From Actinomycetota bacterium (GTDB lineage Bacteria > Actinomycetota > Actinomycetes > S36-B12 > UBA5976): DNA of 46,225 bases. The position numbers were made by a program, and so were the translations under genes. Numbering within the stretch: position 1 is the stretch's first letter; the number at the start of each line of letters is the position of its first letter. The notes under the pieces are model-generated. The model had not been told where the DNA came from. It saw nothing but the letters and a program-made list of their open reading frames with translations, and made no database searches. Below, piece by piece: positions 13,138-33,097 of this stretch. The stretch covers positions 1 through 46,225 of the forward strand of contig JBJOKB010000042.1 in assembly GCA_046046315.1 (NCBI GenBank), read 5' to 3'.

Positions 13138-13799
13138 GGTCTAACTACTGGCACCTCAGGTGTTGAAACATCGTAAGTTGACCCTGCCATTCTTCTTAAA
13201 ACTTTTAATACAGCACTTTTTTCTTGCGCTTTATCAACATTGCCCCACAAAACTTTTCTACCATTTGTCATGATTAACCACATCGAACTTGGATTATCTG
13301 CATTTGTTGACGCGACTTCTGCTTTTAGCCAGTCTGGAAAACTTTGCCAAACAACATAACTTGATGCTCTAGAAGCATCATCTGGACCACTGATGAATGG
13401 GAAAGAAGTCTCTGCTGGAGCTGGTAAATATGCAATCCCTGTCTCGTCAACTAAATATTTAACACCTGCCACATCTGTTATTGCAACTGGTTTTCTTTCA
13501 GTAACTTCGATGACCAAAGTTGAAGGCCAGCCTCTTCTTACTTCTGCCCTACCAATTTGTGGAATGGATTTTAATCTGTCAACAACTGAGTTAGTTGGAA
13601 TTCTTAAAAGTTGGGTGCTTAAGGAAACTTGCGCGGTATCAGAAATCAATTGAACAGGAACTTCCTGGGCTCCCCGTATATCTATTTTCTTTACAATTAA
13701 TAGATTTGAATACCAGCCAATGTAAATAAGCGTTGTCGATATCGCGGCAATTAATACAATTCCAAAAAAGATTCGTCGCCGAATGTGTCTTTTAATCAC
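13134..13799 (-). CDS. ftsQ: cell division protein FtsQ
   Basis: N-terminal basic stretch plus a single TM helix, then a POTRA/FtsQ-type periplasmic domain. Has a 4-nt overlap with murC upstream. Confidence 0.8.
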   Translation of the reverse strand: MIKRHIRRRIFFGIVLIAAISTTLIYIGWYSNLLIVKKIDIRGAQEVPVQLISDTAQVSLSTQLLRIPTNSVVDRLKSIPQIGRAEVRRGWPSTLVIEVTERKPVAITDVAGVKYLVDETGIAYLPAPAETSFPFISGPDDASRASSYVVWQSFPDWLKAEVASTNADNPSSMWLIMTNGRKVLWGNVDKAQEKSAVLKVLRRMAGSTYDVSTPEVPVVRP

Positions 13800-15205: not shown

Positions 15206-15214
15206 TTGGTGACT

Positions 15215-16297: not shown

Positions 16298-17484
16298 TTA
16301 ATTGCTCTTAAAGATTTCTTCTTTTTTAGTTCTGCCTTAACGCTTGGTTCAGCCCTCAATACAGACATCAGAACTCCAATTGCACTCATCGTAAAAACTA
16401 ACGAAGAACCTCCATAAGAAACTAAAGGTAAAGGAACTCCAGTAACGGGCAACAATCCCAAAACTGCTCCAACATTAATAATCGATTGCACAACAATCCA
16501 AGACATTACAGCTGTGGCAATTAACTTAGTAAACAAATCGTTGGTTTTTCTTGCCAACGTTAGTGCCACGTAAGCAATTGTGCCGATAAGAATCAATACG
16601 ATCACAGTTCCGATTAATCCCAACTCTTCTCCAACAACCGCAAAAATAAAATCTGTATGGGCAGCTGGTAACCAACCCCATTTTTCTTTACTTGCCCCTA
16701 AACCGATTCCAGTCCAACCTCCAGAAGCAAGAGCATATTTTCCATGAGTAACTTGCCATCCTGCATCTTGATTTTCTGCAGTTGGATTTATCCAAGATAA
16801 AAATCTTTGAACTCGATAACCCTCTTGAATTGAAAGAATTAGAATTCCTAGTAGTCCAGCTAAAGCAGACCAGGTGAATAGTTTTATTGGTGCTCCAACT
16901 GCGAAGAATAATGAAAGTAAAATTGGACCAATAATTAAAGCTGTTCCTAAATCACCTTCCATAATTACTAATATTGCAATGATTGCACCAACTGGAAAAA
17001 CGGGAATTAAGAGATTTTGCCAAGTTGTGATTTTTGATCTTATTTGCTTACTTAAAACTACAGAGCCCCAAACAATTAAAGTTAATTTGGCGATTTCACT
17101 TGGTTGTAATCTAAATGGTCCCCATAGACTTATCCAGTTTCTTTGGCCCGCAACAGATATTCCAATTCCTGGAATTAAAACCAATACGAGTAGCAAAATA
17201 GATAGCCATAACGCTGCTTTGGCCCACTTAAAAAAGAAAACCTTCGGTAGAAGTGAAATTGCCAACATCATAACTACGCCAATTCCTGCAAACATAAGTT
17301 GACGCAAGAAAATGATGTATTGATTATTGAATTGTTTATAGGAAACTGTTGTTGATGCTGACAAAATCATCACGATGCCGATAAAAAGCAGTCCAAAAGT
17401 TGCGATTAATAGCGCGTAGTAGAGTTTTGCTGAAATTCTTACAGAAGATCCGGTGTCGCTTTTTGTTGGATTTTGGGTAACCAT
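16294..17484 (-). CDS. ftsW: SEDS-family peptidoglycan polymerase FtsW
   Basis: Polytopic protein of about 10 TM helices in the FtsW/RodA family (PLPLVSYGGSS), located between murD and murG. Confidence 0.9.
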   Translation of the reverse strand: MVTQNPTKSDTGSSVRISAKLYYALLIATFGLLFIGIVMILSASTTVSYKQFNNQYIIFLRQLMFAGIGVVMMLAISLLPKVFFFKWAKAALWLSILLLVLVLIPGIGISVAGQRNWISLWGPFRLQPSEIAKLTLIVWGSVVLSKQIRSKITTWQNLLIPVFPVGAIIAILVIMEGDLGTALIIGPILLSLFFAVGAPIKLFTWSALAGLLGILILSIQEGYRVQRFLSWINPTAENQDAGWQVTHGKYALASGGWTGIGLGASKEKWGWLPAAHTDFIFAVVGEELGLIGTVIVLILIGTIAYVALTLARKTNDLFTKLIATAVMSWIVVQSIINVGAVLGLLPVTGVPLPLVSYGGSSLVFTMSAIGVLMSVLRAEPSVKAELKKKKSLRAIK

Positions 17485-18923
17485 TATTTGTTTCCTTGCG
17501 TTCTAGTAACTGCTTGACTAAAGGCATTGCCGCGGTCTTTGTAGTCCTTAAACATGTCCCATGATGCACATCCTGGAGCAAGTAGCACGGTATCTCCAGT
17601 TTTTGCAAATTGAATTGCTGCTAGCACAACTTCAACCATGGCCTCTTCATCAGTTCTTTCAATTACTTTGTAAGGAATATTTGGAGCCACTTTCTTTAAT
17701 GCATTGGCAATCAATTCTTTGTCTTCTCCTAACAACACTGCTGCCTTCATATTTTTACTGTTTTGTTCAATCAACTCTGTAAAATCTTGACCTTTTGCTT
17801 GACCCCCAGCAATCCAGATGACATTGTCATAGGCCTTCAATGACATTTGGGCAGCATGACAATTGGTTGCTTTTGAATCATCAATGAATTTAATACCGTT
17901 AAATTCGCCAACTAATGAAATTCGATGTGGTGCTGGAACAAAACTTCTTAGCCCATCTCGCACATGAGCTGCTTCCACACCATAAGAACGTGCCAGTGCA
18001 GCTGCCGCTAAAGCATTTGCAACATTGTGAGGTGCATTAGGTTGAATATCTGAAACAGAACATAACTCTTGGGCGTGAGTTTTTCTCTCTTCCACGAATG
18101 CGCGATCTACAAGAAAATCTTCAACTACTCCTAGCATCGATAAACCCGGAACTCCTAAGGTAAATCCAATAGCCCTTGCCCCTTCGATTACATCTGCGTC
18201 TTCAACCATCTTCTCGGTAGCTTGATCCTGAACGTTATAAATTGCTGCTTTTTGAACACGGTTATAAATCCTGGCTTTAGTTTTTGAATAATTTTCAAAA
18301 CCACCAAAGAAATCCAGATGATCCTGTGCCAGATTTAAAACGGCTGCAGAGTGTGGTGACATGGACTTAACAAAAGATAATTGAGGTGCACCGACCTCAA
18401 TTGCTAAAACATCTGCAGGAATTGGATCCATAACTGCGCTTACTAATGAATCACCAATATTTCCAACAGCTGGTGCTCTAAATCCAGCAGCGGTTAAAAT
18501 TGAAGACAACATCATCGTTGCGGTGGTTTTACCATTCGTACCTGTTATGCATAACCATGGCGCTGGAAAATCAAGTGGTCTTAATCTCCAAGCTAATTCA
18601 AATTCGCCCCATATTTCAATATTCTTTTTTTGTGCTTCATCAATTATTTGCGCATTTGGTCTAACACCAGGGGAAACAACTAAAAGATTTGTGTTTGCAG
18701 GAATTTCACCTTTGTAATCAAGAAAAATAGTTGCACCTAGGATTTCTAGAACTGTGCCATGTTCTTTTTGAGTATTTCCATTACCGTTATCAATAACGGT
18801 TACATTTGCTCCAACTTCAATTAATGCGTCAGCTGCAGCAAATCCTGCTACGCCCAAACCAACAACGCATGCGTTGAATTTCGTCCAATCACTTTGTCTG
18901 TTGTGTCTTGACCAATCGATCAT
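17484..18923 (-). CDS. murD: UDP-N-acetylmuramoylalanine--D-glutamate ligase
   Basis: VVGLGVAGFAAA Rossmann motif and P-loop ITGTNGKTTATMM. Position in the dcw cluster supports it. Confidence 0.92.
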   Translation of the reverse strand: MIDWSRHNRQSDWTKFNACVVGLGVAGFAAADALIEVGANVTVIDNGNGNTQKEHGTVLEILGATIFLDYKGEIPANTNLLVVSPGVRPNAQIIDEAQKKNIEIWGEFELAWRLRPLDFPAPWLCITGTNGKTTATMMLSSILTAAGFRAPAVGNIGDSLVSAVMDPIPADVLAIEVGAPQLSFVKSMSPHSAAVLNLAQDHLDFFGGFENYSKTKARIYNRVQKAAIYNVQDQATEKMVEDADVIEGARAIGFTLGVPGLSMLGVVEDFLVDRAFVEERKTHAQELCSVSDIQPNAPHNVANALAAAALARSYGVEAAHVRDGLRSFVPAPHRISLVGEFNGIKFIDDSKATNCHAAQMSLKAYDNVIWIAGGQAKGQDFTELIEQNSKNMKAAVLLGEDKELIANALKKVAPNIPYKVIERTDEEAMVEVVLAAIQFAKTGDTVLLAPGCASWDMFKDYKDRGNAFSQAVTRTQGNK

Positions 18924-19987
18924 GCCCTAACCCAACTTGCATAAAACAAGGCCAGACCGCCTGCAACTAATGCACCATGAATAACCCAGAAACGAACAAC
19001 TATTTGAATTTCGGGCCAACCCATCATTTCGAAATGATGATGCAGTGGAGCCATTTTAAATATTCTTTTGCCAGTTAATTTAAATGAACCAACTTGTAAA
19101 ATCACAGAAATTGTTACCAAAACAAACAAACCAGCCAGAAACGCCATTAAGAGTTGAGTTCTTGTCATGATTGCTAAACCTGCGATTGCTCCACCAATAG
19201 CCAGTGAACCTGTGTCACCCATAAAAATTTGGGCAGGAGAAGTGTTCCACCATAAAAATCCAATGCAAGCACCGGCGACTGCAGCAGCAAAAACTGCTAA
19301 ATCAAGAGGATCTCTTACTTCGTAACAAGTTGCATTTCGTTCAAAGGAACAATTTTGATTAAATTCAAAAACTCCAATAAGAATGTAGGCACCAAGTGTA
19401 AGGACAGCTGCGCCTGCAGCTAAACCATCTAATCCATCTGTCAAATTAACAGCGTTTGTGGCCGCTGTTACGAGAAACCAAACTAAAAGAACAAATAAAA
19501 TAGAAGGCAAAACTAGATTTGTATCTCTTACAAATGACACCGCTGCGGAACCAGGTGTTCTTCCTAATTCATCGGGATAATTAATAGAGGCAAAACCAAA
19601 AATAAAAGCTACAACAGCTTGGCCAAGTAGTTTTGTTCTTGCTCTAATTCCTCGGCTATTTTGTTTATATATTTTTAAATAATCATCAGCAAAACCCACA
19701 ATTGCTAACCCAAACATTAAACCTAAAGCCATAAGTGCTGAAAGTGTTGGTGGTCTCCACAAAATTAAATGTGCCATGGCATAACCAACAACTGCCCCAC
19801 CCAGGATTGCCAGTCCTCCCATTGACGGTGTTCCAACTTTTGCTTGATGTTCTGGATAATTAATATTTCCGTCTGAAACTCTTATGGCTTGGGAACGTCC
19901 TCTTCTTCGAAGAAATTTAATTAGTAATGGTGTTGCAAAAAGAGAGAAGACCATGGAAGAAACGCCAGCAATGATGATCAGCCTCAC
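18920..19987 (-). CDS. mraY: phospho-N-acetylmuramoyl-pentapeptide transferase
   Basis: DDYLKI, NAVNLTDGLDGLA and MGDTGSLAIGG motifs in a polytopic membrane protein. Confidence 0.95.
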   Translation of the reverse strand: MRLIIIAGVSSMVFSLFATPLLIKFLRRRGRSQAIRVSDGNINYPEHQAKVGTPSMGGLAILGGAVVGYAMAHLILWRPPTLSALMALGLMFGLAIVGFADDYLKIYKQNSRGIRARTKLLGQAVVAFIFGFASINYPDELGRTPGSAAVSFVRDTNLVLPSILFVLLVWFLVTAATNAVNLTDGLDGLAAGAAVLTLGAYILIGVFEFNQNCSFERNATCYEVRDPLDLAVFAAAVAGACIGFLWWNTSPAQIFMGDTGSLAIGGAIAGLAIMTRTQLLMAFLAGLFVLVTISVILQVGSFKLTGKRIFKMAPLHHHFEMMGWPEIQIVVRFWVIHGALVAGGLALFYASWVRA

Positions 19988-21429
19988 GGACCGACCTCCT
20001 GATTATTGGCGTTAGTTAAATTCTCGCTGAAATCCGACACAATTGCATTTGCGACTCGCTCCAGGCCAACAGATCGAGATGCCTTTACCAACACCACGTC
20101 GTTTGTTTGGATGATTTCCTTGGCCTTTGTGATGCCACTTTCAACATTTTCAACGTAATTCAATAAACCTTTATATGAATTATTTGACAGGTAATCAAAA
20201 ACTATTTTTGCACCTTCTCCAATTACTAAAGTATTTTTTATTTCAAGTTTTTGAATAAGCGCAGCGATTTCTTCGTGTTTTTGTTTTGAAAGGCTTCCTA
20301 GTTCTTTCATTTCTCCCAAAATTGCGACAGTGTTTCTTTTTCCACCAATTTGTTTTAGTGTTTTTATTGCTGAAGCCATCGATTCTGGGTTGGCATTGTA
20401 AGCATCATTAATAACTAAAATATTATTTTTGCTAGTTTCTAATTGCATGCGCCATTTACTTTTTGGAGTAGAGCCAGATAGGGTTTTAGCAACTTTTTCT
20501 ATATCGAGCCCCTTTGTAAGAAATGCTGCTGCGGCAGCCAAAGCATTTGAAACTTGATGAGACCCAATAATTTTTAAATCAACATGACTAGATTTACCCA
20601 TGTACTCTAAATCAAAACTTGCTTGAGCATTTTCGTTGATAGTTATATTTTTTGCACAAATATCTGCACCGTTGAGTCCAAAGCTAGTTATTTGAGCTTT
20701 AGTTTTTTGCAGCGAAAAAGTAGCATCTTCTTTGTTCAATATTGCTACGTCATTTTCTGTTAAACATTCAATTATCTCTCTTTTGGTTTCTAATATTTTT
20801 TCGACAGATGTAAATATTCCTGCGTGAGCAGTACCGATATTAAGAAGTATTGAGGTATCTGGTTTGGCAATTTGACATAGATGTTTGATATTTCCTGCTC
20901 TTCTAGCTCCCATTTCCAAAATTAAAACTTTAGTTTCCTCATTGCATTCCAGCACAGTTTGAGGAAGTCCAATTTCATTATTGAAACTTCCCACTGGAAA
21001 AACCGTTGGTCCAATTAGATTTCCAAGATCTGACAGTAAATCTTTTGTTGTGGTTTTGCCTGACGATCCGGTTACCGCAACTTTCCAAATATTAGGCAGT
21101 TTTGATAATAGATAGCTAGCAAGTTTTCCTAAAGCAATGACCGTTGGTTGATCCACATCTTTTGAACCTGAATTACCCTCAGTCACAACTAAACTAGGTA
21201 ACCCTGGGATTACTTTTGAGCTGACTACTGCAACCGCGCCTGAATCAATTGCCTGCCTACAAAAATCATGACCATCTAAATTTTCTCCATTAATGGCAAT
21301 AAAAAGATCCCCTTTACTTACTTTTCGAGAGTCGATGACGACTTTTCCTGTAACTTTTAAATCACCGTCTACATTTTTAATCTCTCCTGAAATAGCGTTA
21401 GAGATTTCTTTGAGTGTCATCGTGATCAT
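19984..21429 (-). CDS. murF: UDP-N-acetylmuramoyl-tripeptide--D-alanyl-D-alanine ligase
   Basis: Mur ligase P-loop VTGSSGKTTTKDL, at the murE-murF-mraY position. Confidence 0.9.
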   Translation of the reverse strand: MITMTLKEISNAISGEIKNVDGDLKVTGKVVIDSRKVSKGDLFIAINGENLDGHDFCRQAIDSGAVAVVSSKVIPGLPSLVVTEGNSGSKDVDQPTVIALGKLASYLLSKLPNIWKVAVTGSSGKTTTKDLLSDLGNLIGPTVFPVGSFNNEIGLPQTVLECNEETKVLILEMGARRAGNIKHLCQIAKPDTSILLNIGTAHAGIFTSVEKILETKREIIECLTENDVAILNKEDATFSLQKTKAQITSFGLNGADICAKNITINENAQASFDLEYMGKSSHVDLKIIGSHQVSNALAAAAAFLTKGLDIEKVAKTLSGSTPKSKWRMQLETSKNNILVINDAYNANPESMASAIKTLKQIGGKRNTVAILGEMKELGSLSKQKHEEIAALIQKLEIKNTLVIGEGAKIVFDYLSNNSYKGLLNYVENVESGITKAKEIIQTNDVVLVKASRSVGLERVANAIVSDFSENLTNANNQEVGP

Positions 21430-21431
21430 GT

Positions 21432-22922
21432 CTATTTACCAAATTTTTCTTTTAAAGCTTTACTTAAATGTTTGGCATCATCGAAATCAATTATTTTTCC
21501 TGCTATTTCTTGAGTAGTTTCATGACCTTTACCAAGAATGGCAATTGTGTCATCTGGTGAAGAAAGTTTCACAGCTTCTTCAATGGCTTGTTCTCTACTA
21601 CCAATTTCTTTGGTTTTTATTTTGTTTTTAATTCCACTCAATACTGCTCTTCTAATTTCTGCAGGGTTTTCATTGCGAGGATTATCGTCAGTAATTATTA
21701 GGGTATCTGCATATTTTTCACCTGCAGAACCCATAAATGGTCTCTTCTCAGAATCTCTGTTTCCACCAGCTCCAAGAACAACGATTAAGTTGCCATTAGT
21801 TTGTTTTCGCAGTGCTCCCAAAACATTCTCAATAGCTTCGGGGGTGTGGGCATAATCAATAATTCCTAACGCAGCTCCTGGCATAACTACGGGTTGCATT
21901 CTTCCTGGAATTTGAGTATCTTTTATGCCATTTATGAATTCCTTTATTTCTATTCCAGTTTGATCTGCCATAGCAATTACTAGTGCCGCGTTGAATGCAT
22001 TGAAAGCACCAGCAAAACTCAGAGTAACTTTATAAGGCTTTTTTCTAGGATCAATTAATTCAAAGTAAACATGTCCAAGAGCTGCGGTGATGTCGCTGAC
22101 TCGCCAGTCGTTGTGGACATCACCGCCCAGTGTTGCAAAAGGAATTTGGATTTTTTGTGTCAGTTTTTTACCCCAAGAATCTAAATCTGTAATCACGGCA
22201 TTAGAGGTGAAATATTCTGTGAATAATTTAGCTTTTGCTTCAAAATAACTTTCCATATTTTTATGAAAATCTAAATGATCTTGGCTTAAATTTGTAAAAC
22301 CTGTTGAAGCAAATTTTGTGCCATCAATTCTTTCTAAATCAAGGGAATGTGAAGATACTTCCATCGAAATAGCTTTAGATCCTTTTTCTAAGGCTAGTGC
22401 AAATAATGCTTGTAATTCTGGAGCTTCAGGAGTAGTTCTGGCACTTGGAAGATTAGTTCCTGCAATAGAAATTCCAGCTGTACCTAACAAAGAAGTTGGG
22501 ATGCCACATTTTTCTAAACCAGCACGCATTAACCAAGCTGAAGTAGTTTTTCCATTCGTTCCTGTAATTCCATAAATTTTTAATGATTCAGAAGGATTTC
22601 CAAACACAAAAGAGGAAATCTCGCCTAACTTATGGCGAGGATTTTCCATTTTTAGAACAATTAATTCCTCATCTTTTATTAAATTCTCACCTTGTGAATC
22701 AGTTAGAACAGCTACAGCCCCATTTGCTTTGGCTTCATTAACAAAATTTGCTCCATGAGTTTTTTCTCCAGTTAAAGCAACAAATAGATCTCCTGGCTCA
22801 ACGCTTTTAGTGTCATGGGTAATTCCTGTAATTTTTAGATCTGAAAAATTTGCTGGTAAATTAAATTTTCGAGCAAGTTCACCTAACGACACAGGTTTTA
22901 CGCTGGGGCGGGCAAACTTCAT
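21432..22922 (-). CDS. murE: UDP-N-acetylmuramoyl-L-alanyl-D-glutamate--2,6-diaminopimelate (or L-Lys) ligase
   Basis: P-loop GITGTNGKTTSAWL and a C-terminal DDNPRNE motif. Confidence 0.92.
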   Translation of the reverse strand: MKFARPSVKPVSLGELARKFNLPANFSDLKITGITHDTKSVEPGDLFVALTGEKTHGANFVNEAKANGAVAVLTDSQGENLIKDEELIVLKMENPRHKLGEISSFVFGNPSESLKIYGITGTNGKTTSAWLMRAGLEKCGIPTSLLGTAGISIAGTNLPSARTTPEAPELQALFALALEKGSKAISMEVSSHSLDLERIDGTKFASTGFTNLSQDHLDFHKNMESYFEAKAKLFTEYFTSNAVITDLDSWGKKLTQKIQIPFATLGGDVHNDWRVSDITAALGHVYFELIDPRKKPYKVTLSFAGAFNAFNAALVIAMADQTGIEIKEFINGIKDTQIPGRMQPVVMPGAALGIIDYAHTPEAIENVLGALRKQTNGNLIVVLGAGGNRDSEKRPFMGSAGEKYADTLIITDDNPRNENPAEIRRAVLSGIKNKIKTKEIGSREQAIEEAVKLSSPDDTIAILGKGHETTQEIAGKIIDFDDAKHLSKALKEKFGK

Positions 22923-22927
22923 TTAAA

Positions 22928-24661
22928 TCACCACTCCACTGGATAGCCGGTTGGCTTTCCATTAGAAGGAGGAATATTTAGTTGTTGTAATGAATATTGT
23001 GCAACTTCCTTGAACACAGGCCCTGCAAGTAATCCTCCATATCGACCATTACGTGGGTGATGAATAGCAACGGCAACAACAATCTCAGGATCTTCAGCAG
23101 GTGCCATGCCAATAAATGAGGCGATTACATCTCGGGAATAACACTTGCAATTTGGATCCACAACTTGAGCAGTTCCAGTTTTTCCAGCAACTCGATAACC
23201 TGGAATTCCTGCTAAAGGAGCTGTTCCTTCATCTGAAACAACAGTTTCCATCATCTCTCTTAATGTTTTAGCTGCAGATTCAGAAATTACTTCAACTTTT
23301 TCAGGTTCTGGTGCTGCTTGATATTGACCATTTGGCATTACGTAGCCTTCAATAAGCGATGGATTTATTCTGACGCCATCATTTGCAATCGTTGCGTACA
23401 TGCTGGCAATTTGAACTGCGGTAACCATGTAACCCTGACCAAAAGCAAAAGTTGGAAAACTTGTGCCAGACCAATTTTCTATTTTCGGTAGACGACCTTT
23501 TGATTCACCAGGAAATTGCATCCCCGTTGACTGTCCTACTCCAAATTTTGTTAAATAACTATTGAATTTTTCTGCCCCCATTAATTCAGCAGCTTGAATT
23601 GTTCCGATGTTACTAGATTTAGCTAAAACTCCAGTCATAGTTAATTTCAATGTTGGATGAGGTTCATGATCGTGGAAAGTTTTACCATTTCTTTTTAAAA
23701 CAGGTGGAATTGTAAATGCAGTTGTGGGACTTGCTAATCCTTCATTTAACAATCCGGCCATCGTGATTACTTTTGCAGTTGAACCAGGTTCGTAAGCATC
23801 AACTAAAGCGTGATTAACGGTTACTCCATCAGCGGCTTCGCCTGGTTTATTCGCATCAAATGTTGGATAAGTTGCTAACGCTAAGATCTTTCCTGTTTTA
23901 GGAGAAATTGCAACAAGTGTTCCACTATCTGCTTGTGCATGTTCAACTCGAGCAGCAAGTGATTGTTCTGCAACAAATTGCAAATCTCTATCGATTGTTA
24001 ATCTAATTCCCATTCCTGGAACAGGTTTCTTTTCTGACGCAATACCTGATGGCAGCGGTCTTCCTCCTGCACTTATTTCTACAGTGACTTCACCTTGGGA
24101 ACCTGCTAATTCATTTTCAAATCCATATTCCAATCCAGCTAAACCTTTATCTTCACCACCAATAAAACCAATGGTGCTAGAAGCCAATGTGTTTGACGGG
24201 TAAATTCTTTTCGTGGTTTTTTCACTAAAAATTCCTGGTAATTTTAGTTCTTTTATTTTGGTCCATTGTTCTGGAGTTATTTTTTTTAACACGTAATTGA
24301 ATTTTCTATCTCCTGAAAGCTCAGGAATTATGGTTGCAACATCGGCACCTGTAATTGCGGCAATTGCGTTTGCGGTTCCAACAGGATCTATCACCATTGT
24401 TTGATCTACTGTTATGTCTCTTGCATCAACTGTGATTGCTAATGGAGCCCCTTTTCTATCGGTGATTTCTCCGCGTTGGGCAGGCAAAATTAGAGTTCTT
24501 GTTCTATTTTCAGCGGCAGTTGCGGCAAGTTGTGGTGCATCCAGTGCTTGCAGTTGAAAAAGTCTAATTCCAAAAATTGAAAGAGTAATAAAGCAAAAAG
24601 CGAGCGCTCCGCGCATTCTGCGTGGACCAGTTTTTAATTTGATGACTTCATTTGGATTCAT
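22928..24661 (-). CDS. ftsI: class B penicillin-binding protein (division transpeptidase FtsI/PbpB)
   Basis: N-terminal TM helix with transpeptidase motifs STAK (GSTAKV), SSN (KSSNIG) and KTGT (GKTGTAQ). Confidence 0.9.
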   Translation of the reverse strand: MNPNEVIKLKTGPRRMRGALAFCFITLSIFGIRLFQLQALDAPQLAATAAENRTRTLILPAQRGEITDRKGAPLAITVDARDITVDQTMVIDPVGTANAIAAITGADVATIIPELSGDRKFNYVLKKITPEQWTKIKELKLPGIFSEKTTKRIYPSNTLASSTIGFIGGEDKGLAGLEYGFENELAGSQGEVTVEISAGGRPLPSGIASEKKPVPGMGIRLTIDRDLQFVAEQSLAARVEHAQADSGTLVAISPKTGKILALATYPTFDANKPGEAADGVTVNHALVDAYEPGSTAKVITMAGLLNEGLASPTTAFTIPPVLKRNGKTFHDHEPHPTLKLTMTGVLAKSSNIGTIQAAELMGAEKFNSYLTKFGVGQSTGMQFPGESKGRLPKIENWSGTSFPTFAFGQGYMVTAVQIASMYATIANDGVRINPSLIEGYVMPNGQYQAAPEPEKVEVISESAAKTLREMMETVVSDEGTAPLAGIPGYRVAGKTGTAQVVDPNCKCYSRDVIASFIGMAPAEDPEIVVAVAIHHPRNGRYGGLLAGPVFKEVAQYSLQQLNIPPSNGKPTGYPVEW

Positions 24662-26006: not shown

Positions 26007-26041
26007 TTACTGTTTCCCCTTCCCCTTACTTTTCGGCTTTG

Positions 26042-26137
26042 CGTTTCACCGAGGTCCCCCTCTGCAAACATTGCTTCCGGCTTCGGGGAAGAAAGTCGGC
26101 GGACAATAATTTGCAGAGAGAGGCCTCAAGCGAAACG
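26042..26137 (-). ncRNA. long imperfect hairpin in the mraZ-rsmH spacer, consistent with the actinobacterial mraW RNA motif
   Basis: CGTTTC (26042-47) pairs with GAAACG (26132-37), GAGG with CCTC, and CTCTGCAAA (26060-68) with TTTGCAGAG (26110-18). There is an inner CTTCC/GGAAG stem. It lies directly 5' of rsmH on the coding strand with no U-tract after it. Confidence 0.5.
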
Positions 26138-26164
26138 AAAATAATTCGTTTAGCTATTTAGCTT

Positions 26165-26810: not shown

Positions 26811-27572
26811 ATGGCTACAGCTCGCAATCAAATCGCTCAGCGCAATGCTGGTTACGCGCTTCATGTTTTTACTGCCAGTGGTGCAGTTTTTGGAATGCTT
26901 GCCTTGCAAGCAATCATTGATGGTCGAGTTAGAGATTCTTTAATTTGGTTAATTGTGTGCCAAATTCTTGACGGAATTGATGGACCCATTGCAAGAAAAT
27001 TAGACGTAGTGATTCATGCTCCATGGTTAAGTGGAGTTGTTCTAGATGAGATCGTTGATTATTTCACTTATGTAATTATTCCGGTGATGTTTTTGTTAAA
27101 CACAAACATGATGCCTGAACAATATGAAACTTTTGTTGCGGGAGCAATCCTTTTAACATGCGCTATTTGGTGGGCAAGAACAGATCATAAAACTGATGAT
27201 TCGTGGTTTGTTGGTTTTCCCTGCATGTGGAATTTAGTAGTTATAAGTTTCTTACTTCTAAAAACTCCACCTACTTGGGTAGTTGTAATTTCTTTAATTC
27301 TTTGCGTTTTGCAATTAACAAATATTAAATTTCCTCATCCAGTAAGAGTTACAGTATTAAGACCTATTTCAATTACTATTTCGATAGTTTATCTTTTGGC
27401 AATAACCGTCATGTCATTAAATTATTCAGAGCCTTTAGAGTCACCATCAATATTTACTAAAGTGCTTGTTTTAAGTTTGCCTGTATATACAGCAATTTTA
27501 GCTATTTGGAAAACATGGTTTGCCTCGAAGAAAACTGTTAGAACAAAGAAAAAAACTACCTCTCGTAAATAA
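26811..27572 (+). CDS. pcs: CDP-alcohol phosphatidyltransferase, phosphatidylcholine synthase (Pcs)-like
   Basis: HVFTASGAVFG, LDGIDGPIARK (D-G-x2-A-R core), DEIVDYFTYVIIP, GFPCMWNLVV and FPHPVRV. From memory these match rhizobial Pcs blocks rather than PgsA/PssA. About 8 TM segments. Confidence 0.6.
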   Translation: MATARNQIAQRNAGYALHVFTASGAVFGMLALQAIIDGRVRDSLIWLIVCQILDGIDGPIARKLDVVIHAPWLSGVVLDEIVDYFTYVIIPVMFLLNTNMMPEQYETFVAGAILLTCAIWWARTDHKTDDSWFVGFPCMWNLVVISFLLLKTPPTWVVVISLILCVLQLTNIKFPHPVRVTVLRPISITISIVYLLAITVMSLNYSEPLESPSIFTKVLVLSLPVYTAILAIWKTWFASKKTVRTKKKTTSRK

Positions 27573-27577
27573 TTAGT

Positions 27578-27781
27578 GTGAAAAAATTAAGTAGAACACT
27601 TGCTTACGTTTTTATTTCCATCACAATCTTTTTTATGATTTTGTTTAATTTAATTGGCTCAAAAGTTGATCAAAATGGTTTGTTACAAGAACCTTTTTAC
27701 TTGATTCCGTTAAGCTATACAACTTTTACACTAGGGATTATTTTTGCGATAATTTCTGTTCTAAAAAAGCAGAAAAACTAG
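27578..27781 (+). CDS. small two-TM membrane protein (unknown function)
   Basis: 67-aa ORF with a GTG start and two clear hydrophobic helices. Follows pcs after 5 nt. No family motif recognised. Confidence 0.4.
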   Translation: MKKLSRTLAYVFISITIFFMILFNLIGSKVDQNGLLQEPFYLIPLSYTTFTLGIIFAIISVLKKQKN

Positions 27782-28236
27782 ATTCCACCATCGCGACGTT
27801 GTTGCCAGCGTTCTTCAAGTCTTGACATCAATTTAGAATTTTTGGTTCGATTGCGTACTTTGGTAGGAGTTGGAGTTGCGGCAGCTACAGGTTCTTGAAG
27901 TCCGCGAGCAATAAAAACAAAACCAGTTAAAACCAAAAGGAACCCGGGTATTCCCACAATCACTGTTTTTGAAACAACAGAACCAAAAACAAGTGCCAAA
28001 CCTGAAACAAGAGCAAGTAAACCAAAAATCACATGACGGCGTTCCCCGGGAGCAATGGTTAAACCAGAGCGGCGAAGCGTGGAGGCAAACTTTGGATCTT
28101 CGGCATAAAGAGCTTTTTCCATTTGCTCAAGAAGCTTTTGTTCGCGATCTGAAAGCGCCACTGTTCTTTGTTCCCCACTCGTATATGAAGAGTATTTCCT
28201 ACTTTTAAGAATACGACTTTTAAACTTTCTAGCCAC
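27778..28236 (-). CDS. DUF3040-like membrane protein
   Basis: LSDREQKLLEQMEKALYAEDPKFAS followed by two TM helices, which is the typical actinobacterial DUF3040 layout. Confidence 0.6.
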   Translation of the reverse strand: MARKFKSRILKSRKYSSYTSGEQRTVALSDREQKLLEQMEKALYAEDPKFASTLRRSGLTIAPGERRHVIFGLLALVSGLALVFGSVVSKTVIVGIPGFLLVLTGFVFIARGLQEPVAAATPTPTKVRNRTKNSKLMSRLEERWQQRRDGGI

Positions 28237-28250
28237 ATTTGAGTGCGGTC

Positions 28251-29465
28251 TTAATCGATGAGTCGTGCCGGCTTTATGGCGTCATCGCCGAATCGGGCAC
28301 TGGCTTTATCGCTAGCCTTATCGATTTCACGCCATCCCTTCTCGTTTTCCCCCAGCAGTAGCTGTCGGGAGGCTGTTTGGGCTTGCTCAAGTTTTTCGAC
28401 TCTTACTCCCACCAACCGGACTCGAACGCGGTCCAGTTTTAGATTCTCAAAAAGTGTTTTAGTGATCGCATAGATATCTTTTGCAACATCGGTTGGATCC
28501 GAAATGGTTTTTGAACGAGAAATGGTGGAAAAGTTAGCAAATCTCACTTTCAACACAATGGTTCGTCCCACAAGTTCTGCAGCTCTTAACCGGGCGGCAA
28601 CTTTTTCACTTAGTCTTAGAATTTCTCTTAAAATATCTTCTGCTTCATCTAAATCCTTAGAAAAAGTTTCTTCGTTGCCAATACTTTTTTCAGGTTCATA
28701 AGGTTCAACATTTCTTTCATCTCGTCCCCAAGATAATTCATGTAAATGTTCAGCTAGGCCCTCTCCTAAAGCTCTGCTTAAAGTTTTTAGTGGCAAATTA
28801 GCAATATCGGCAACTTTATATAAACCTAAACGAGCTAAAACTTCTTCTGTTTTTCCTCCCACTCCCCAAAGTGCTCCAACTGGTAGTGGGTGTAAAAACC
28901 TAATTACTTCATCAGGTGAAACCACTAATAATCCATCAGGTTTAGCTCTAGTAGAAGCTAATTTGGCAATAAATTTTGTGGGAGCAATTCCAACCGAGCA
29001 AGTAATGTTTTCTTGAGCAAATACTTTGTCTCTTAGTTTTTGCCCTATTTCAGTAGGTGTGCCTAAAAGTTTTCTGGATCCTGAGACATCTAAGAATGCC
29101 TCATCGACACTTAATGGTTCAACTAAAGGAGTCATCGAATAATAAATATCTTGTAAACGATTTGATACTTCTTCATATTTTTCATGACTTGGTTCAATTA
29201 CTGTTGCTCCAGGGCATTTTCTTAATGCTTCAGTCATAGACATTGCCGCATGCACTCCAAATTTGCGAGCTTCATATGTTGCAGAAGTAACAACTCCTCT
29301 ACCTCCGCTATGGCCAACAATTACGGGAGTTCCTCTTAATTCAGGTCGATCTTTTAATTCCACTGAAGCGAAAAATGCATCCATATCAACATGCAAAATA
29401 TTTGAATTTGAATCATCACCTGTTAGTTCAATATGGGGAAGTTTTAAAATTTGGCGATGCGTCAT
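28251..29465 (-). CDS. dinB: Y-family DNA polymerase IV (catalytically intact)
   Basis: Catalytic motifs DMDAFFASVE and SVDEAFLDVSG are present. Contains RQLLLG, which resembles the E. coli Pol IV clamp motif QLVLGL. Its start overlaps the dnaE2 stop (ATGA). Confidence 0.9.
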   Translation of the reverse strand: MTHRQILKLPHIELTGDDSNSNILHVDMDAFFASVELKDRPELRGTPVIVGHSGGRGVVTSATYEARKFGVHAAMSMTEALRKCPGATVIEPSHEKYEEVSNRLQDIYYSMTPLVEPLSVDEAFLDVSGSRKLLGTPTEIGQKLRDKVFAQENITCSVGIAPTKFIAKLASTRAKPDGLLVVSPDEVIRFLHPLPVGALWGVGGKTEEVLARLGLYKVADIANLPLKTLSRALGEGLAEHLHELSWGRDERNVEPYEPEKSIGNEETFSKDLDEAEDILREILRLSEKVAARLRAAELVGRTIVLKVRFANFSTISRSKTISDPTDVAKDIYAITKTLFENLKLDRVRVRLVGVRVEKLEQAQTASRQLLLGENEKGWREIDKASDKASARFGDDAIKPARLID

Positions 29466-32400
29466 AGTTCAATCATCTCGCTTTTGTTAGTTATCAAAGT
29501 TCTTCTCCCCACAGACATGCCGCCTGCTTTTGCCCGGTAAGAATTTGGCTTGGCGCCAGGACTTAATTCAATTACTTTTTTAACTTCATTAATTCCTTTT
29601 TGTTGAAAAATTGTAAACATTTCACCTAGGTCCCAACAACCAGTTGCTCTTACCGAAACTCCCCTAGGCCCAGTTCTTCTTAAAATCCCTCGTACTAAAA
29701 GTAGAACTGAGTTATAAACAGTCGAGGCGTAATAACTTTGCATATCTTCAAAAAAAGCGGCATCACTTGGCCCAGTGGGATCATCAATAGTTAGAAAAAT
29801 AACTCTTTTGCCGCTTCGAACCGGTGGAGTTTGGGTAGTAACTTTTACTCCAGCTACTAATACTTCTTTTCCTCCCGTTAAAGAAACTAATGATTTAGCA
29901 GGAGTTACTCCTAAAGCTTTAAAAAATGGGATATAGGAATTAACTAAATGACTACTGGCATCAAGTCCTAATACTTGCAATTCGTTAATAATATTTTCAC
30001 TCTTTGTAAAATCTGGTAAACCTGAAGAAATATTTTCTGGTGTAGTGGAAACATCTAAAATCATTTGATTACTAATTACTCCTAAGTTATGTTCTAAATC
30101 AGATAACTGCAGCAATAAATCTCTTCTATTTAATTGACTTGGTAGTAAGGAATCAAATCCGCCAGCCAAAATAATGTTTTCCGTAACATCTTTAGAAACT
30201 TGCGCTCTCTGCCAAAAATCAGCTAGTGAAGTAAAGGGTCTGTTTTCTACAATTCTTTCCATCTCCGCACTACTAATTGATCTCACATCTTGTAGGGATA
30301 GTCGGATACCGTATCTATCTTCATTTTTTTCTACTCGGTAACACTGATCTGATTTGTTAACATCAAGACCAAGTAAGGCAATACCAAAGTTTTTAGCATC
30401 ATTTGCAATTAATCTTTTGGGATACATTCCTGGATCATGAGTTAATACTCCAGCTAAAAAGGCTGCCGTGTGATGGGTTTTTAGCCAAGCTGATTGATAA
30501 GTAGGAAGTGCAAAGGCACCAGCGTGTGCTTTACAAAAACCAAAGGATGCAAAAGCTTTGAGTATTTCCCAAATATGTTTAATTAATTCATGAGAATATT
30601 TCAATTTTTGCGCAGATTTAATGAACCATTCTTCAACTTCAAGTTGACCTTCAAAAGATCCCATAGCGCGACGCTTTTCATCTCCCAGCGCTAAAGAACA
30701 ACCAGTCATGACACTTATCAGTTTTATGACTTGTTCATGGAAAACCACCACTCCACTTGTTTCTTGCACAATAGGATCAATTTTTTCGTGTAATACAGGA
30801 AGAGCTTTTCTGCCTTGTCTTACTTCTAGAAAAGGTGTGATCATGTCAGATTTAACTGGACCTGGCCTAAATAAAGAAATATCAATTATTAGATCATTAA
30901 AGTTTTGTGGACCAAATTTGCCAATTAGTTCTCTTTGCCCGGGAGACTCTATTTGAAAGCAACCTAGTGTTTTAGTTGATTGAATTAGCTTATAAGTCTT
31001 TTCATCTGCTAAAGAGATTTCATCAAGGTTAATGTCTATTTTGTCTACTCGTTTTATTTCTTGCAAACTATAAGCCATGGCAGATTGCATTCTTATCCCT
31101 AAAACATCAAGCTTAAGAAAACCCATTAATTCCACATCATCTTTATCAAATTGGCTCATAGGAAACTTTGCTCCACTTGATTCAACTGGAGTTCGATCCA
31201 AAAGTGTTTTATCCGACAAAATAACTCCACAAGGATGCATTGCTAAATGTCTTGGTAAACCATCTAGTTTTTCAACTAAGTCAAGATATAAATCAAGGTT
31301 TCCTTCACTCATTAAACGAGTAAAAGATGATTTTTTTAACTCTGGTAATTGGCTTAAAACTTCCCTAGCTCTTCTAGCGCTTACTCGTGGAAATGTTTTA
31401 GCAAAAGCATCAATTTCTCCTGGAGGTAAACCAAGTGCTGCACCAACATCTCTAACCGCATGTCTTACTCGATAAGTTTCGCGCATTGAAATGCAAACCA
31501 CACGGTCTTTACCAAATCTTTCATAAATTGCATCATAAATATCTAATCTTCGGTCTGATTCCACATCAATATCAATATCTGGCAATGCAGTTCTTAAAGG
31601 AGATAAAAATCTTTCCATTATTAGTCCGTATTTAACTGGATCAAGACCTGATATTCCTAAAGTGAAATTAACTAGACTTCCAGCTCCAGATCCTCTAGCT
31701 GCAACTCGAATTCCCATTTGTTTAGTTAAATCAACAACTTCACCTACAGTTAAGAAATATCCAGCAAACCCTAATTGCCTAATAACATCTAATTCTTGAC
31801 TTAATCTTTCCTGATATTCAAGTTTGTATCCAAGCCCTAATTTTGTTAAACCAGATTGACATTTGTCTACTAATACTTTCATAGGTTCTAAACTATTTTT
31901 TCCTAAAATAACATCAGTTTCAGGAACGCTTACAGAACCAATTCCAATATCTTTAACAGGATCTAAGCTACATTCTTCTGCAATTTGCTCGGTAAATTTT
32001 AATAACAACAAAGCAGTTTCAGGACTACTTAAATGTTTTCCAATATTGTAAGCAACCTGTGACATATCGGCACTAGATTTTAAATAAGCAGATCCCCTAA
32101 AGCCTTTTACTTGTTCAAATCTCATTTGTTTTTTTGTTTCAACTGAATCAAGTAATTCAGCCATAATTGCATCTTCGGGGTTAAGGTATCTGACAGCATT
32201 TGTTAGAACTGCTCTTAAACGATTATCTTTAGCAAAAGTTGCCATTTTACTAGCTGTGCTTAGTGAGTATTTAGGATCAGTTACTTTATGAGAATTTGGA
32301 TGAGCAGTTACTTCAATTACTACATCATTTCTATCAACATGACTTAACCAGTTTTGTAAGAAACTATTTGCTAAATCAATTCTGTTTCGTATTACACTTT

Positions 32401-32794
32401 GCCCAATTTCAGAATTAATTCCCAGTATTGCTACTAGATTTCCTTGCTGCATCTTTTCCCACAACAAAGACACATCTAAAACAGGTTTACCTCGCTCTTT
32501 TTGGTGAGCGCTGCTTACTAATCGACATAAATCTCTCCAACCATTTTTCCCGCGAGCAAGCACCAAGACTCTTGATTTACCTAAATTGAAATTAACTCCA
32601 ACAATTGGGGCTATGCCATTGATCATGCAGTTGTGGACAAAATTAATTGCCCCCGACATAGTGTCTTGATCGGTTAGTGCAAGTTTGAAAAAGTTATGAA
32701 ATGAAGCTTTCGCAACTATTTTTTCAGGCACGGCTGTGCCATAGCGAAGTGAATAGGCAGAAGAAACATTTAAGTGCGTAAAACTTTGTTGCAA
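29462..32794 (-). CDS. dnaE2: error-prone C-family DNA polymerase alpha subunit, DnaE2-like
   Basis: 1110 aa with a TTG start. Polymerase aspartates are in PDIDIDVES and LKLDVLGI. The DnaE2-like helix reads FGFCKAHAGAFALPTYQSAWLKTHHTAAFLAGVL. N-terminal PHP ligands are degenerate (HLNVSSAYS, LTDQDT). Confidence 0.78.
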   Translation of the reverse strand: MQQSFTHLNVSSAYSLRYGTAVPEKIVAKASFHNFFKLALTDQDTMSGAINFVHNCMINGIAPIVGVNFNLGKSRVLVLARGKNGWRDLCRLVSSAHQKERGKPVLDVSLLWEKMQQGNLVAILGINSEIGQSVIRNRIDLANSFLQNWLSHVDRNDVVIEVTAHPNSHKVTDPKYSLSTASKMATFAKDNRLRAVLTNAVRYLNPEDAIMAELLDSVETKKQMRFEQVKGFRGSAYLKSSADMSQVAYNIGKHLSSPETALLLLKFTEQIAEECSLDPVKDIGIGSVSVPETDVILGKNSLEPMKVLVDKCQSGLTKLGLGYKLEYQERLSQELDVIRQLGFAGYFLTVGEVVDLTKQMGIRVAARGSGAGSLVNFTLGISGLDPVKYGLIMERFLSPLRTALPDIDIDVESDRRLDIYDAIYERFGKDRVVCISMRETYRVRHAVRDVGAALGLPPGEIDAFAKTFPRVSARRAREVLSQLPELKKSSFTRLMSEGNLDLYLDLVEKLDGLPRHLAMHPCGVILSDKTLLDRTPVESSGAKFPMSQFDKDDVELMGFLKLDVLGIRMQSAMAYSLQEIKRVDKIDINLDEISLADEKTYKLIQSTKTLGCFQIESPGQRELIGKFGPQNFNDLIIDISLFRPGPVKSDMITPFLEVRQGRKALPVLHEKIDPIVQETSGVVVFHEQVIKLISVMTGCSLALGDEKRRAMGSFEGQLEVEEWFIKSAQKLKYSHELIKHIWEILKAFASFGFCKAHAGAFALPTYQSAWLKTHHTAAFLAGVLTHDPGMYPKRLIANDAKNFGIALLGLDVNKSDQCYRVEKNEDRYGIRLSLQDVRSISSAEMERIVENRPFTSLADFWQRAQVSKDVTENIILAGGFDSLLPSQLNRRDLLLQLSDLEHNLGVISNQMILDVSTTPENISSGLPDFTKSENIINELQVLGLDASSHLVNSYIPFFKALGVTPAKSLVSLTGGKEVLVAGVKVTTQTPPVRSGKRVIFLTIDDPTGPSDAAFFEDMQSYYASTVYNSVLLLVRGILRRTGPRGVSVRATGCWDLGEMFTIFQQKGINEVKKVIELSPGAKPNSYRAKAGGMSVGRRTLITNKSEMIEL

Positions 32795-32849
32795 AATAGA
32801 CTTATCCTCTTTTTAAATTAAGTCGGAGGAAGACGACTTTTACTTAGGA

Positions 32850-32907
32850 CGTTTGACTCTCTCGAGAAAAAAGCTTCCCCGCATGTTTTCTGCGAAAGAG
32901 TCAAACG
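32850..32907 (-). promoter_or_regulatory. leader hairpin A upstream of dnaE2
   Basis: CGTTTGACTCT (32850-60) pairs with AGAGTCAAACG (32897-907). The stem extends through TCG/CGA and AGAAAA/TTTTCT with one bulge, about 20 bp in total. Confidence 0.6.
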
Positions 32908-32915
32908 ATGGGTTT

Positions 32916-32975
32916 TTCATTTGATGCCAAATGGCGATTAAAGGGGTGTAAATCGCCATTTGAATCAAAAATGAA
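32916..32975 (-). promoter_or_regulatory. leader hairpin B upstream of dnaE2
   Basis: CAAATGGCGATT (32928-39) pairs with AATCGCCATTTG (32951-62) around an 11-nt loop. The stem extends through TTTGA/TCAAA (32920-24 with 32965-69) and TTCA/TGAA (32916-19 with 32972-75). Confidence 0.6.
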
Positions 32976-33014
32976 GAGGGGTCATTCAGGGGAAAACGCC
33001 CTTTTCTTCACTAT

Positions 33015-33030
33015 CCGAACACCTGTTCGA
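33015..33030. promoter_or_regulatory. LexA (SOS) box candidate
   Basis: CCGAACacctGTTCGA matches the actinobacterial consensus TCGAAC-N4-GTTCGA at 11 of 12 defined positions. It lies in the divergent dnaE2/ybaK intergenic region. Confidence 0.65.
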
Positions 33031-33038
33031 ATAAACCT

Positions 33039-33062
33039 AAGTTAATCACCTTCCACTGACAA
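33039..33062 (-). promoter_or_regulatory. RecA-NDp / PafBC-type DNA-damage promoter candidate directed toward dnaE2
   Basis: The minus strand reads TTGTCAGTG-gaaggtgat-TAACTT. The mycobacterial RecA-independent promoter motif, as I recall it, is tTGTCRgtg-N8-TAnnnT; the spacer here is 9 nt. The LexA box starts 9 nt downstream of the -10. Confidence 0.5.
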
Positions 33063-33097
33063 AGGTCAACCATGGGGTGAGTGCGTAGCCTTGAGGG

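Follow-up and report, generated by a model that had tools for sequence, protein, structure and literature searches.

A predicted LexA-controlled dnaE2-dinB operon, probably a reduced DnaE2B mutagenesis module, in a freshwater Nanopelagicales genome

Contig JBJOKB010000042.1, a stretch of 46,225 nucleotides that was analyzed over its whole length and is called the window below, carries two adjoining genes for DNA polymerases: dnaE2, which encodes a large C-family enzyme, and dinB, which encodes a Y-family enzyme. The window belongs to the core chromosome of a low-GC freshwater actinobacterium of the order Candidatus Nanopelagicales (GC content of about 38% overall, with a range of 0.35 to 0.42 along the window and 36 to 41% in 2-kb windows), and its nearest genome records are Nanopelagicales metagenome-assembled genomes (MAGs) with protein identities of 93 to 94%. 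The two genes are preceded by a LexA box, a putative promoter, and a structured leader (Table 1). For comparison, we used 80 related actinobacterial loci that were recovered with the window polymerase as the query.

Table 1. Features of the dnaE2-dinB locus (positions are those of the window)
Feature	Position	Strand	Remarks
dnaE2 (DnaE2B group), 1110 aa	29462..32794	-	TTG start; AGAGGA Shine-Dalgarno 11 nt upstream
dinB (PolY-core Pol IV), 404 aa	28251..29465	-	start overlaps dnaE2 stop (ATGA, 29465-29462)
LexA (SOS) box TCGAACAGGTGTTCGG, actinobacterial type	33015..33030	.	~220 nt upstream of dnaE2 start
Putative LexA-controlled promoter	33039..33069	-	-35 TTGACC 33064-33069; -10-like TAACTT 33039-33044; block GACCTTTGTCAGTGGAAGGTG
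Structured 5' leader RNA	32795..33014	-	~220 nt, LexA box to start codon; four hairpins
Leader hairpin H1	32972-33010	-	
Leader hairpin H2, CCCC loop	32922-32967	-	
Leader hairpin H3	32850-32907	-	apical UGCGGGGAAGC at 32873-32883
Leader hairpin H4, UCUUCCUC loop	32821-32838	-	
Leader Shine-Dalgarno	32801-32811	-	
DUF3040 / SCO2097-family small membrane protein	27778..28236	-	profile match; true start probably ~28161

The dnaE2 product has a complete architecture (PHP, Pol III alpha, fingers, HhH, and OB domains) and retains the Asp triad of the palm (PDIDID, residues 405 to 410; KLDVLG, residues 561 to 566). The metal ligands of its PHP domain are gone, with HLNVSSAYSLRYG and TDQD standing where DnaE1 has HLHVHTEYSMLDG and TDHG, and the tau-binding C-terminal domain is missing; the match to the DnaE1 profile ends at position 1064 of 1146, leaving out the last ~80 positions. 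Among the NCBIfam models, the DnaE1 equivalog scored 648 bits (cutoff, 1002) and the error-prone polymerase model 614 bits (cutoff, 939), and this pattern of scores below both cutoffs was seen in every homologue tested, the chromosomal Streptomyces DnaE2 included. When the protein was compared with solved structures, E. coli alpha (408 bits) outscored M. tuberculosis DnaE1 (301 bits), which argues that the window polymerase is no orthologue of the actinobacterial DnaE1. Its homologues are named "error-prone DNA polymerase" by JGI.

A neighbor-joining tree (1,024 columns, 100 bootstraps) placed the enzyme clearly. The DnaE1 references in this tree were the true Nanopelagicales DnaE1 genes, and the DnaE2A references came from imuA-imuB-dnaE2 cassettes of Rhizobium, Paraburkholderia, and a Streptomyces plasmid (L089, L091, and L092), all of which have imuA-imuB upstream. 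DnaE1, DnaE2A, and DnaE2B formed three clades, each with 100% bootstrap support, and the window polymerase fell into the 31-member DnaE2B clade together with the chromosomal Streptomyces DnaE2, apart from the other two groups; identities are 48 to 55% within its own clade and 26 to 30% to DnaE2A and DnaE1. An earlier reading of the stretch made from the letters alone (the sequence-only reading) had proposed such a phylogeny as a check on its naming of the gene as dnaE2, and the name stands. Judged by sequence, the window polymerase is a member of the DnaE2B group of Timinskas and Venclovas (PMC12926913), and every DnaE2B feature that could be tested here fits.

The same reading had recognized that the large polymerase might instead be the sole DnaE1 of its genome; a true DnaE1 gene was found elsewhere in relatives. 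In the related locus L088, the IleS protein is 86% identical to that of the window, and the genes run as they do there (ileS-divIVA-yggT-sepF-yggS-pgeF-ftsZ-pntAB-nucleases-ftsQ). To the left of its ileS gene lie rluD, lspA, and then a DnaE1 gene whose product, although truncated, scores 1338 bits on NF004226, has the HLHVHTEYSMLDG motif intact, and is only 29% identical to the window polymerase. A second Nanopelagicales genome has the same DnaE1 layout. DnaE1 was reached in these two genomes only (P0127/L088 and P0161/L087); in the closest strains, every IleS homologue is truncated by the end of its contig. For complete genomes of "Ca. Planktophila" and "Ca. Nanopelagicus", the reported counts are one DnaE1, one DnaE2B, no DnaE2A, and one Y-family gene in total (PMC12926913). 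By analogy with these relatives, the replicase of the window's own genome would be a separate DnaE1 encoded just left of ileS, and the window polymerase would not be the replicase.

Within the window DnaE2, the hexapeptide QMILDV (residues 910 to 915; positions 30050 to 30067) occupies the alignment position of the internal clamp-binding motif of DnaE1 (QYDLF). A Q[LM]x[LF]x[LVIF] sequence is present at that column in 60 of 75 DnaE2B proteins, most commonly as QLTLDL, QLSLDL, or QLALDL, and nothing comparable was seen there in the three DnaE2A references. This pattern suggests that DnaE2B may bind the beta clamp directly, unlike the ImuB-dependent DnaE2A. The sequence-only reading had offered an active Pol IV as the clamp adaptor for DnaE2; with a QLxLDL-type motif in DnaE2B itself, DinB need not serve in that capacity.

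In most DnaE2B proteins (homologues in L005 to L080), the C terminus is made up of two conserved tail motifs, VLVHASGFxQSPYADIxPAG and KLWHxSPGSSG[HWR]. DnaE2 of the window clade stops after AGGMSVGRR (29462 to 29530) without either of them, and the entire tail is missing from DnaE2 of the Planktophila clade. We considered whether the tail tracks the presence of the ImuB-C or HEPN genes described below and rejected the idea: there is no correlation, as Streptomyces has the tail without either gene and Planktophila has ImuB-C without the tail.

The product of the second gene is, on its motifs and profile scores, a catalytically intact Pol IV of the ordinary PolY-core type. It reaches the curated cutoffs of NF003015 (390 bits; cutoff, 367) and NF002677 (373 bits; cutoff, 256), comprises IMS, IMS_HHH, and IMS_C domains, and has its best PDB matches among Pol IV structures. 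It is 49% identical to the PolY of Tessaracoccus (E value of 1e-127, RecA-NT motif included), 40% to Caulobacter DinB, 38% to an msDinB3-like protein, 30% to an scDinB2-like protein, and about 23% to the ImuB references. The sequence-only reading had described this gene correctly in its main points: it is the sole Y-family gene of the window, it lies downstream of dnaE2 and overlaps its stop codon, and its translation retains both catalytic acidic motifs, DMDAFFASVE (residues 27 to 36) and SVDEAFLDV (residues 119 to 127), which are conserved across the related loci with the exception of Streptomyces. The extension of "roughly 35" residues that had been noted after the clamp-like motif RQLLLG (residues 367 to 372; positions 28350 to 28367) amounts to 32 residues and could be assigned a candidate role. 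This C terminus (GWREIDKASDKASARFGDDAIKPARL, 28260 to 28337) matches the PolY C-terminal motif that Timinskas and Venclovas named RecA-NT-like (PMC6511836), with the consensus GWRE..A.D....RFG..A[IV].PA.L, which is kept in about 60 DinB homologues, including the scDinB2-like proteins and the Tessaracoccus PolY. The window DinB is probably also the only Y-family polymerase of the cell. Both genes are under strong purifying selection, with dN/dS ratios of 0.06 to 0.18 at dS values of 0.5 to 1.7 (dnaE2, 0.06 to 0.18; dinB, 0.06 to 0.11).

No imuA or imuB was found in the window, in agreement with the sequence-only reading, by profile scans or by a six-frame phmmer search. The profile scans covered 36 of the open reading frames (ORFs) of at least 110 aa, and the core mur/fts genes (13796 to 24661) were covered by the six-frame search only. 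With three ImuA and three ImuB references as queries against the six-frame translation of the window, only the dinB ORF was matched, at 26 to 28 bits, and this gene lacks the hallmarks of a canonical ImuB, as it lies downstream of dnaE2, keeps DMDAF..E and SVDEAF, and ends 32 aa past the clamp motif. ImuA- or ImuB-like sequence was likewise absent within 10 kb on either side of dnaE2 in the 80 related loci. For the standalone ImuB-C gene of related systems, a hidden Markov model (HMM) of DUF6504 that matches the published Tessaracoccus lapidicaptus ImuB-C (E value of 3e-26) found a counterpart in 63 related loci, and none in the window or in its relatives L001 to L003 and L096. The 303-bp gap upstream of dnaE2 (32795 to 33097) contains no ORF and, in any frame, no similarity to DUF6504, HEPN, or ImuA; a search for a DUF6504 or HEPN remnant gave nothing above noise (best E value, 1.7). 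The earlier statement that no imuA-like ORF exists in this region was thus upheld, but the region is not empty, since it holds the LexA box and a conserved structured leader. In the complete Nanopelagicaceae genomes, the single Y-family polymerase means that there is no ImuB; ImuB seems to be absent across the order and, by the same analogy, would be absent from the window's own genome.

At the head of the operon, the LexA box is the sole match in the 46 kb to TCGAAC-N4-GTTCGA with at most one mismatch, and such a box heads the homologous operon in most of the related loci that have enough upstream sequence. Next to it, the putative promoter block is 100% conserved among the window, L001 to L003, L096, and 14 metagenome contigs, and other Nanopelagicales loci have related TTGAC..TGTCAG..TA(A/C)nnT blocks ahead of their LexA boxes. 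A scan for consensus sigma-70 promoters did not call the conserved TTGACC...TAACTT block, to which we tentatively ascribe a promoter function. The Streptomyces dnaE2-dinB2 operon has an SOS box and was shown to be induced by UV and methyl methanesulfonate (PMC3273824), and by analogy with this homologue the window operon would be controlled by LexA and induced by DNA damage.

The leader, which spans the interval from the LexA box to the start codon, is predicted to fold far more stably than expected (minimum free energy of −74.1 kcal/mol versus −46.3 ± 4.3 for shuffled sequences; z = −6.46). Thirteen distinct leaders share the four hairpins, with 99.3% of cells paired on the consensus versus 40 to 55% in slid registers, and double changes occur at 7 base pairs versus 0 to 1 in slid registers; the covariance-search alignment A5 was excluded from these pair counts owing to admixed reverse-strand hairpin matches. 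Few independent covariation events could be counted, as only ~5 lineages are available. The leader was found in the window, L001 to L003, L096 to L110, L093 (3560 to 3718), and L095 (3560 to 3720). When a covariance model was trained on leaders of the window clade only, it matched the sister lineage ahead of the DUF6504 gene at 32 and 23 bits, and among 41 sources, matches were confined to the window clade and L093 to L095. In this sister lineage, the stem sequences of H2 and H3 are entirely different, and the loops CCCC, UGCGGGGAAG, and UCUUCC are kept; the stems of the two lineages thus show complete covariation. Rfam gave no match to the leader at the gathering threshold or at an E value of 1 or less. 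The H3 loop is complementary to the loops of both H4 and H2, and the Shine-Dalgarno sequence is paired with a UCCU after H3 in the minimum free energy fold, a combination that, speculatively, suggests a translational switch. We therefore raise the possibility that the leader is a new cis-regulatory RNA. An intrinsic attenuator was also considered, given a weak terminator-like hairpin with a U-tract within H3, and was rejected when the U-tract proved to be absent in L093.

Linkage of dnaE2 to dinB is widespread. In 63 of the 80 related loci, from many actinobacterial orders, dnaE2 is followed on its own strand by a gene for an active-type DinB that is 46 to 93% identical to that of the window, frequently with overlapping start and stop codons. 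The linkage is far above chance. Six-frame profile searches delineated a consensus operon across Actinomycetes, consisting of the LexA box, DUF6504, HEPN (optional), dnaE2, a methyltransferase (optional), dinB, and DUF3040. The HEPN gene, a small member of the HEPN_SAV_6107 family (PF18726), separates DUF6504/ImuB-C from dnaE2 in about 55 of the 80 loci (e.g., L018:9530-9963 and L006:9560-9976), an operon context that is mentioned neither in the 2013 HEPN survey nor in the 2019 and 2026 polymerase papers or their supplements. The S-adenosylmethionine-dependent methyltransferase, of ~250 aa and with a weak CmoM-like match, occupies the gap between dnaE2 and dinB in ~43 loci, about half (e.g., L018:13952-14716), and is not found in the window. 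The arrangement also varies in other ways. Five Streptomyces loci carry an N-terminally truncated, catalytically dead scDinB2-type protein instead of an active DinB; in the Geodermatophilaceae loci L038, L048, and L050, dinB lies 6 to 7 kb from dnaE2 (~10.4 to 10.7 kb past the start of dnaE2), is preceded at 40 to 60 nt by a separate LexA box, and is still followed by DUF3040; and two Actinomadura loci (L072 and L078) have no dinB within 10 kb of dnaE2.

Against this background, the window locus is a small one. DUF6504 and HEPN are both missing in the window, in L001 to L003 and L096, and in the 14 metagenome contigs. The next lineage (L093 to L095; DnaE2 56 to 57% identical) has the operon in the same chromosomal slot, between the ybaK/carotenoid genes and DUF3040-mraZ, and still has a 93-aa DUF6504 gene abutting dnaE2. 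As this sister lineage keeps DUF6504 in the same slot, the form seen in the window is a derived loss, and the suggestion of an ancestral-like cassette, made in the sequence-only reading, does not hold. Within the low-GC Nanopelagicales clade, ImuB-C appears to have been lost, and both HEPN_SAV_6107 and the DnaE2 C-terminal tail of many relatives are absent.

The premise from which that reading started, that DnaE2 normally comes in an imuA-imuB cassette, is outdated, as DnaE2B systems lacking both genes and paired with an active or inactive PolY that bears the RecA-NT motif have been published (PMC6511836, PMC12926913). The 4-bp overlap of dnaE2 and dinB has been known from Streptomyces and Kytococcus since 2012 (Tsai et al., Nucleic Acids Research; PMC3273824) and ImuA-less DnaE2 systems with an active or inactive PolY since 2019 (Timinskas and Venclovas; PMC6511836); the classification into DnaE2A, DnaE2B, and DnaE2X, together with an actinobacterial DnaE2-[ImuB-C]-PolY-RecA type, followed in 2026 (Timinskas and Venclovas, Nucleic Acids Research; PMC12926913). 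The window locus resembles the latter module, typified by Tessaracoccus lapidicaptus, in the DnaE2 clade, the order of dnaE2 and polY, the LexA box ahead of the genes, a PolY at 49% identity in which both the clamp and the RecA-NT motifs recur, and, as far as the window shows, the lack of ImuA and ImuB. It differs in that the window clade has no standalone ImuB-C (DUF6504) gene, a defining feature of the module, in that its DnaE2 lacks VLVHASGFxQSPYADIxPAG and KLWHxSPGSSG, and in that a structured leader directly precedes dnaE2. With Streptomyces dnaE2-dinB2 ("DnaE2B-iPolY-RecA"; PMC3273824), it shares the DnaE2B clade (48 to 49% identity), the 4-bp overlap, the upstream SOS box, the lack (here within the window) of ImuB-C, ImuA, and ImuB, and a Y-family partner with the same C-terminal RecA-NT motif; the Streptomyces partner, however, is N-terminally truncated and has no catalytic carboxylates (PPDAAL in place of SVDEAF), whereas the window partner is a full-length Pol IV that its motifs predict to be active.

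In composition, the window locus is also like the Bacteroidetes DnaE2B-PolY-RecA systems (Cellulophaga algicola type; PMC6511836, PMC12926913), which we compared by their published description rather than by sequence: two apparently active polymerases plus RecA are predicted, and ImuB-C, ImuA, and ImuB are lacking. The phylum is different, and the Bacteroidetes partner is a PolY2 while that of the window is a PolY-core, so that a Bacteroidetes-like composition appears to have been reached independently in the window clade through loss of ImuB-C within Actinobacteria. The canonical ImuA-ImuB-DnaE2 mutasome (M. tuberculosis and C. crescentus; DnaE2A) has in common with the window a second C-family polymerase whose PHP domain is dead and which is under SOS control (as predicted for the window), and a Y-family partner bearing clamp and RecA-NT motifs. 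In contrast to that system, the window has no ImuA, its Y-family partner is of the active type, lies downstream, and lacks the ImuB-C domain, and its DnaE2, at only 26 to 28% identity to DnaE2A, carries an internal clamp-like motif with no counterpart in DnaE2A. Since all tested DnaE2B features fit and the ImuB-C gene of the module is missing, we interpret the window operon as a reduced form of a known DnaE2B system and as the most reduced form known of the actinobacterial DnaE2B-[ImuB-C]-PolY-RecA module.

We consider it likely that the locus is a LexA-repressed operon for two translesion polymerases, namely, a DnaE2B and a translationally coupled, ordinary, active Pol IV with clamp and RecA-NT-like motifs. 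DNA damage would activate RecA and lead to cleavage of LexA, whereupon the long structured leader would be transcribed and dnaE2 and dinB would be translated in a coupled manner. Each polymerase would reach the clamp through its own motif (QMILDV in DnaE2 and QLLLG in DinB), and the RecA-NT motif of DinB would allow docking to RecA, which would take the place of ImuA as proposed previously (PMC6511836, PMC12926913); the two enzymes might then act together or in succession, one inserting and the other extending, in lesion bypass. Several points weigh against this interpretation. The clamp and RecA motifs are called at the level of sequence, the physical or functional coupling of DnaE2 with DinB is our inference, and it is only the analogy to complete genomes from this order that excludes ImuB-C, imuA, and imuB elsewhere in the genome. 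Deletion of dnaE2 in S. coelicolor caused no UV sensitivity or mutagenesis phenotype, and deletion of dinB2 did (PMC3273824). Finally, the unlinked dinB of Geodermatophilaceae and the dinB-less Actinomadura loci imply that cotranscription is not obligatory.

The main competing explanation is that the two genes are mere neighbors, DinB being a general SOS-induced Pol IV that works alone (as a PolY-RecA dimer) and DnaE2B being independent or cryptic, with adjacency and the ATGA overlap resulting from compaction of a streamlined genome rather than from a complex. The Geodermatophilaceae dinB genes with LexA boxes of their own, the Actinomadura loci, the silent dnaE2 deletion of S. coelicolor (PMC3273824), the ordinary PolY-core nature of a DinB that is probably the sole Y-family polymerase, and the clamp-like motif of DnaE2B itself all speak for it. 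It does not readily account for linkage in 63 of 80 loci over many actinobacterial orders, often with start/stop overlap, or for the confident AlphaFold tetramer of DnaE2B, PolY, ImuBC, and RecA published for the homologous pair (PMC12926913), of which the Tessaracoccus PolY is a component, and the inactive PolY that Streptomyces retains beside dnaE2 makes sense only as a partner. On balance, we regard the neighbor explanation as unlikely, though it deserves serious attention. A more elaborate version of the operon interpretation holds that the minimal DnaE2B-DinB pair is a self-sufficient mutasome without an adaptor, in which DnaE2B sits on the clamp through its own motif and synthesis is gated after release of LexA by a loop-loop/anti-Shine-Dalgarno switch of the leader (invariant GGGGAAG, CUUCC, and CCCC); this is a tentative and rather improbable elaboration.

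The remaining explanations fare worse. A split canonical mutasome, with imuA'-imuB at a separate genomic site (the M. tuberculosis arrangement) and the adjacent DinB irrelevant, would have a precedent in the split cassettes of mycobacteria (PMC6511836), and yet the enzyme is a DnaE2B and DnaE2A is the only group found with ImuA/ImuB, the complete Nanopelagicaceae genomes have no DnaE2A and one Y-family gene in total, and no ImuA/ImuB-like sequence occurs in the window or around the 80 loci, all of which makes it very unlikely. Scarcely credible is the idea that the pair is a decaying remnant heading for loss: compared with relatives, the pair indeed lacks a number of partner genes and motifs (ImuB-C, the DnaE2 tail, and the PHP residues), but neither the window nor L001 to L003 has an interrupted reading frame, those metagenome contigs that extend into dnaE2 have an undamaged 5' end of the gene, the dN/dS ratios are low, and both enzymes retain their catalytic residues. 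Finally, we see practically no chance that the large polymerase is a replicative DnaE1 that diverged through genome streamlining. The lost PHP ligands, the absent tau-binding domain, an identity of only 28 to 30% to Nanopelagicales DnaE1, the true DnaE1 next to rluD-lspA-ileS in L088 and L087, and the LexA box all speak against it, and although the DnaE1 model is nominally the top NCBIfam match, both scores are far below their cutoffs.

Downstream of dinB, the DUF3040 gene is found in about 60 related loci, and in the relative L096 (79% identical) about 3.7 kb separate the two. The DUF3040 gene may be cotranscribed with dinB; its membership in the polymerase system is doubtful. Elsewhere in the window, the left part carries, in order, ileS, divIVA, sepF, yggS, pgeF, ftsZ, pntAB, and two PD-(D/E)XK nuclease genes, followed by an aldehyde dehydrogenase gene, ftsQ with the remaining dcw cluster, rsmH, mraZ, a CDP-alcohol phosphatidyltransferase gene, and DUF3040, and to the right of the dnaE2-dinB pair lie a divergent ybaK-like gene, a carotenoid cluster, ogt, aroG, and pfk. 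The two adjoining nuclease genes (8801 to 11583, plus strand; 307 and 619 aa), with weak Cas4/AddB-like matches, sit between pntB and aldehyde dehydrogenase/ftsQ and are kept in L088. An mraW RNA motif (Rfam RF01746; 53.8 bits, above gathering) occurs in the gap between mraZ and rsmH (26032 to 26143, minus strand), as expected in an actinobacterial dcw cluster. The CDP-alcohol phosphatidyltransferase gene in the gap between mraZ and DUF3040 (26811 to 27572, plus strand) has phosphatidylcholine synthases as its top matches, at 157 bits and well under the cutoffs, and is likewise found in L096. The window begins inside ileS (1 to 1722), nearly all public contigs of the lineage (L081 to L086 and P0122 to P0133) break in or just upstream of ileS, and the contigs reached leftward through the window DivIVA are 2 to 4.5 kb long and all end at ileS. 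A repeat or a hypervariable region may underlie this recurrent break in the assemblies.

The gene pair itself is unsurprising after the papers of 2012, 2019, and 2026; potentially new knowledge lies in the structured leader RNA, the unreported HEPN_SAV_6107 gene of the wider operon, and the internal clamp-like motif of DnaE2B. A lineage of 38 to 40% GC with an intact and selected dnaE2 is also a counterexample to the claim that dnaE2 signals a high GC content (PMC3274465). For the biology of these organisms, the locus indicates that the DnaE2B module is under strong selection even in streamlined freshwater Actinobacteria with genomes of ~1.2 to 1.4 Mb and that it can be reduced to two polymerases and, presumably, RecA, making the window clade a natural minimal system for the contribution of ImuB-C and the DnaE2 tail.

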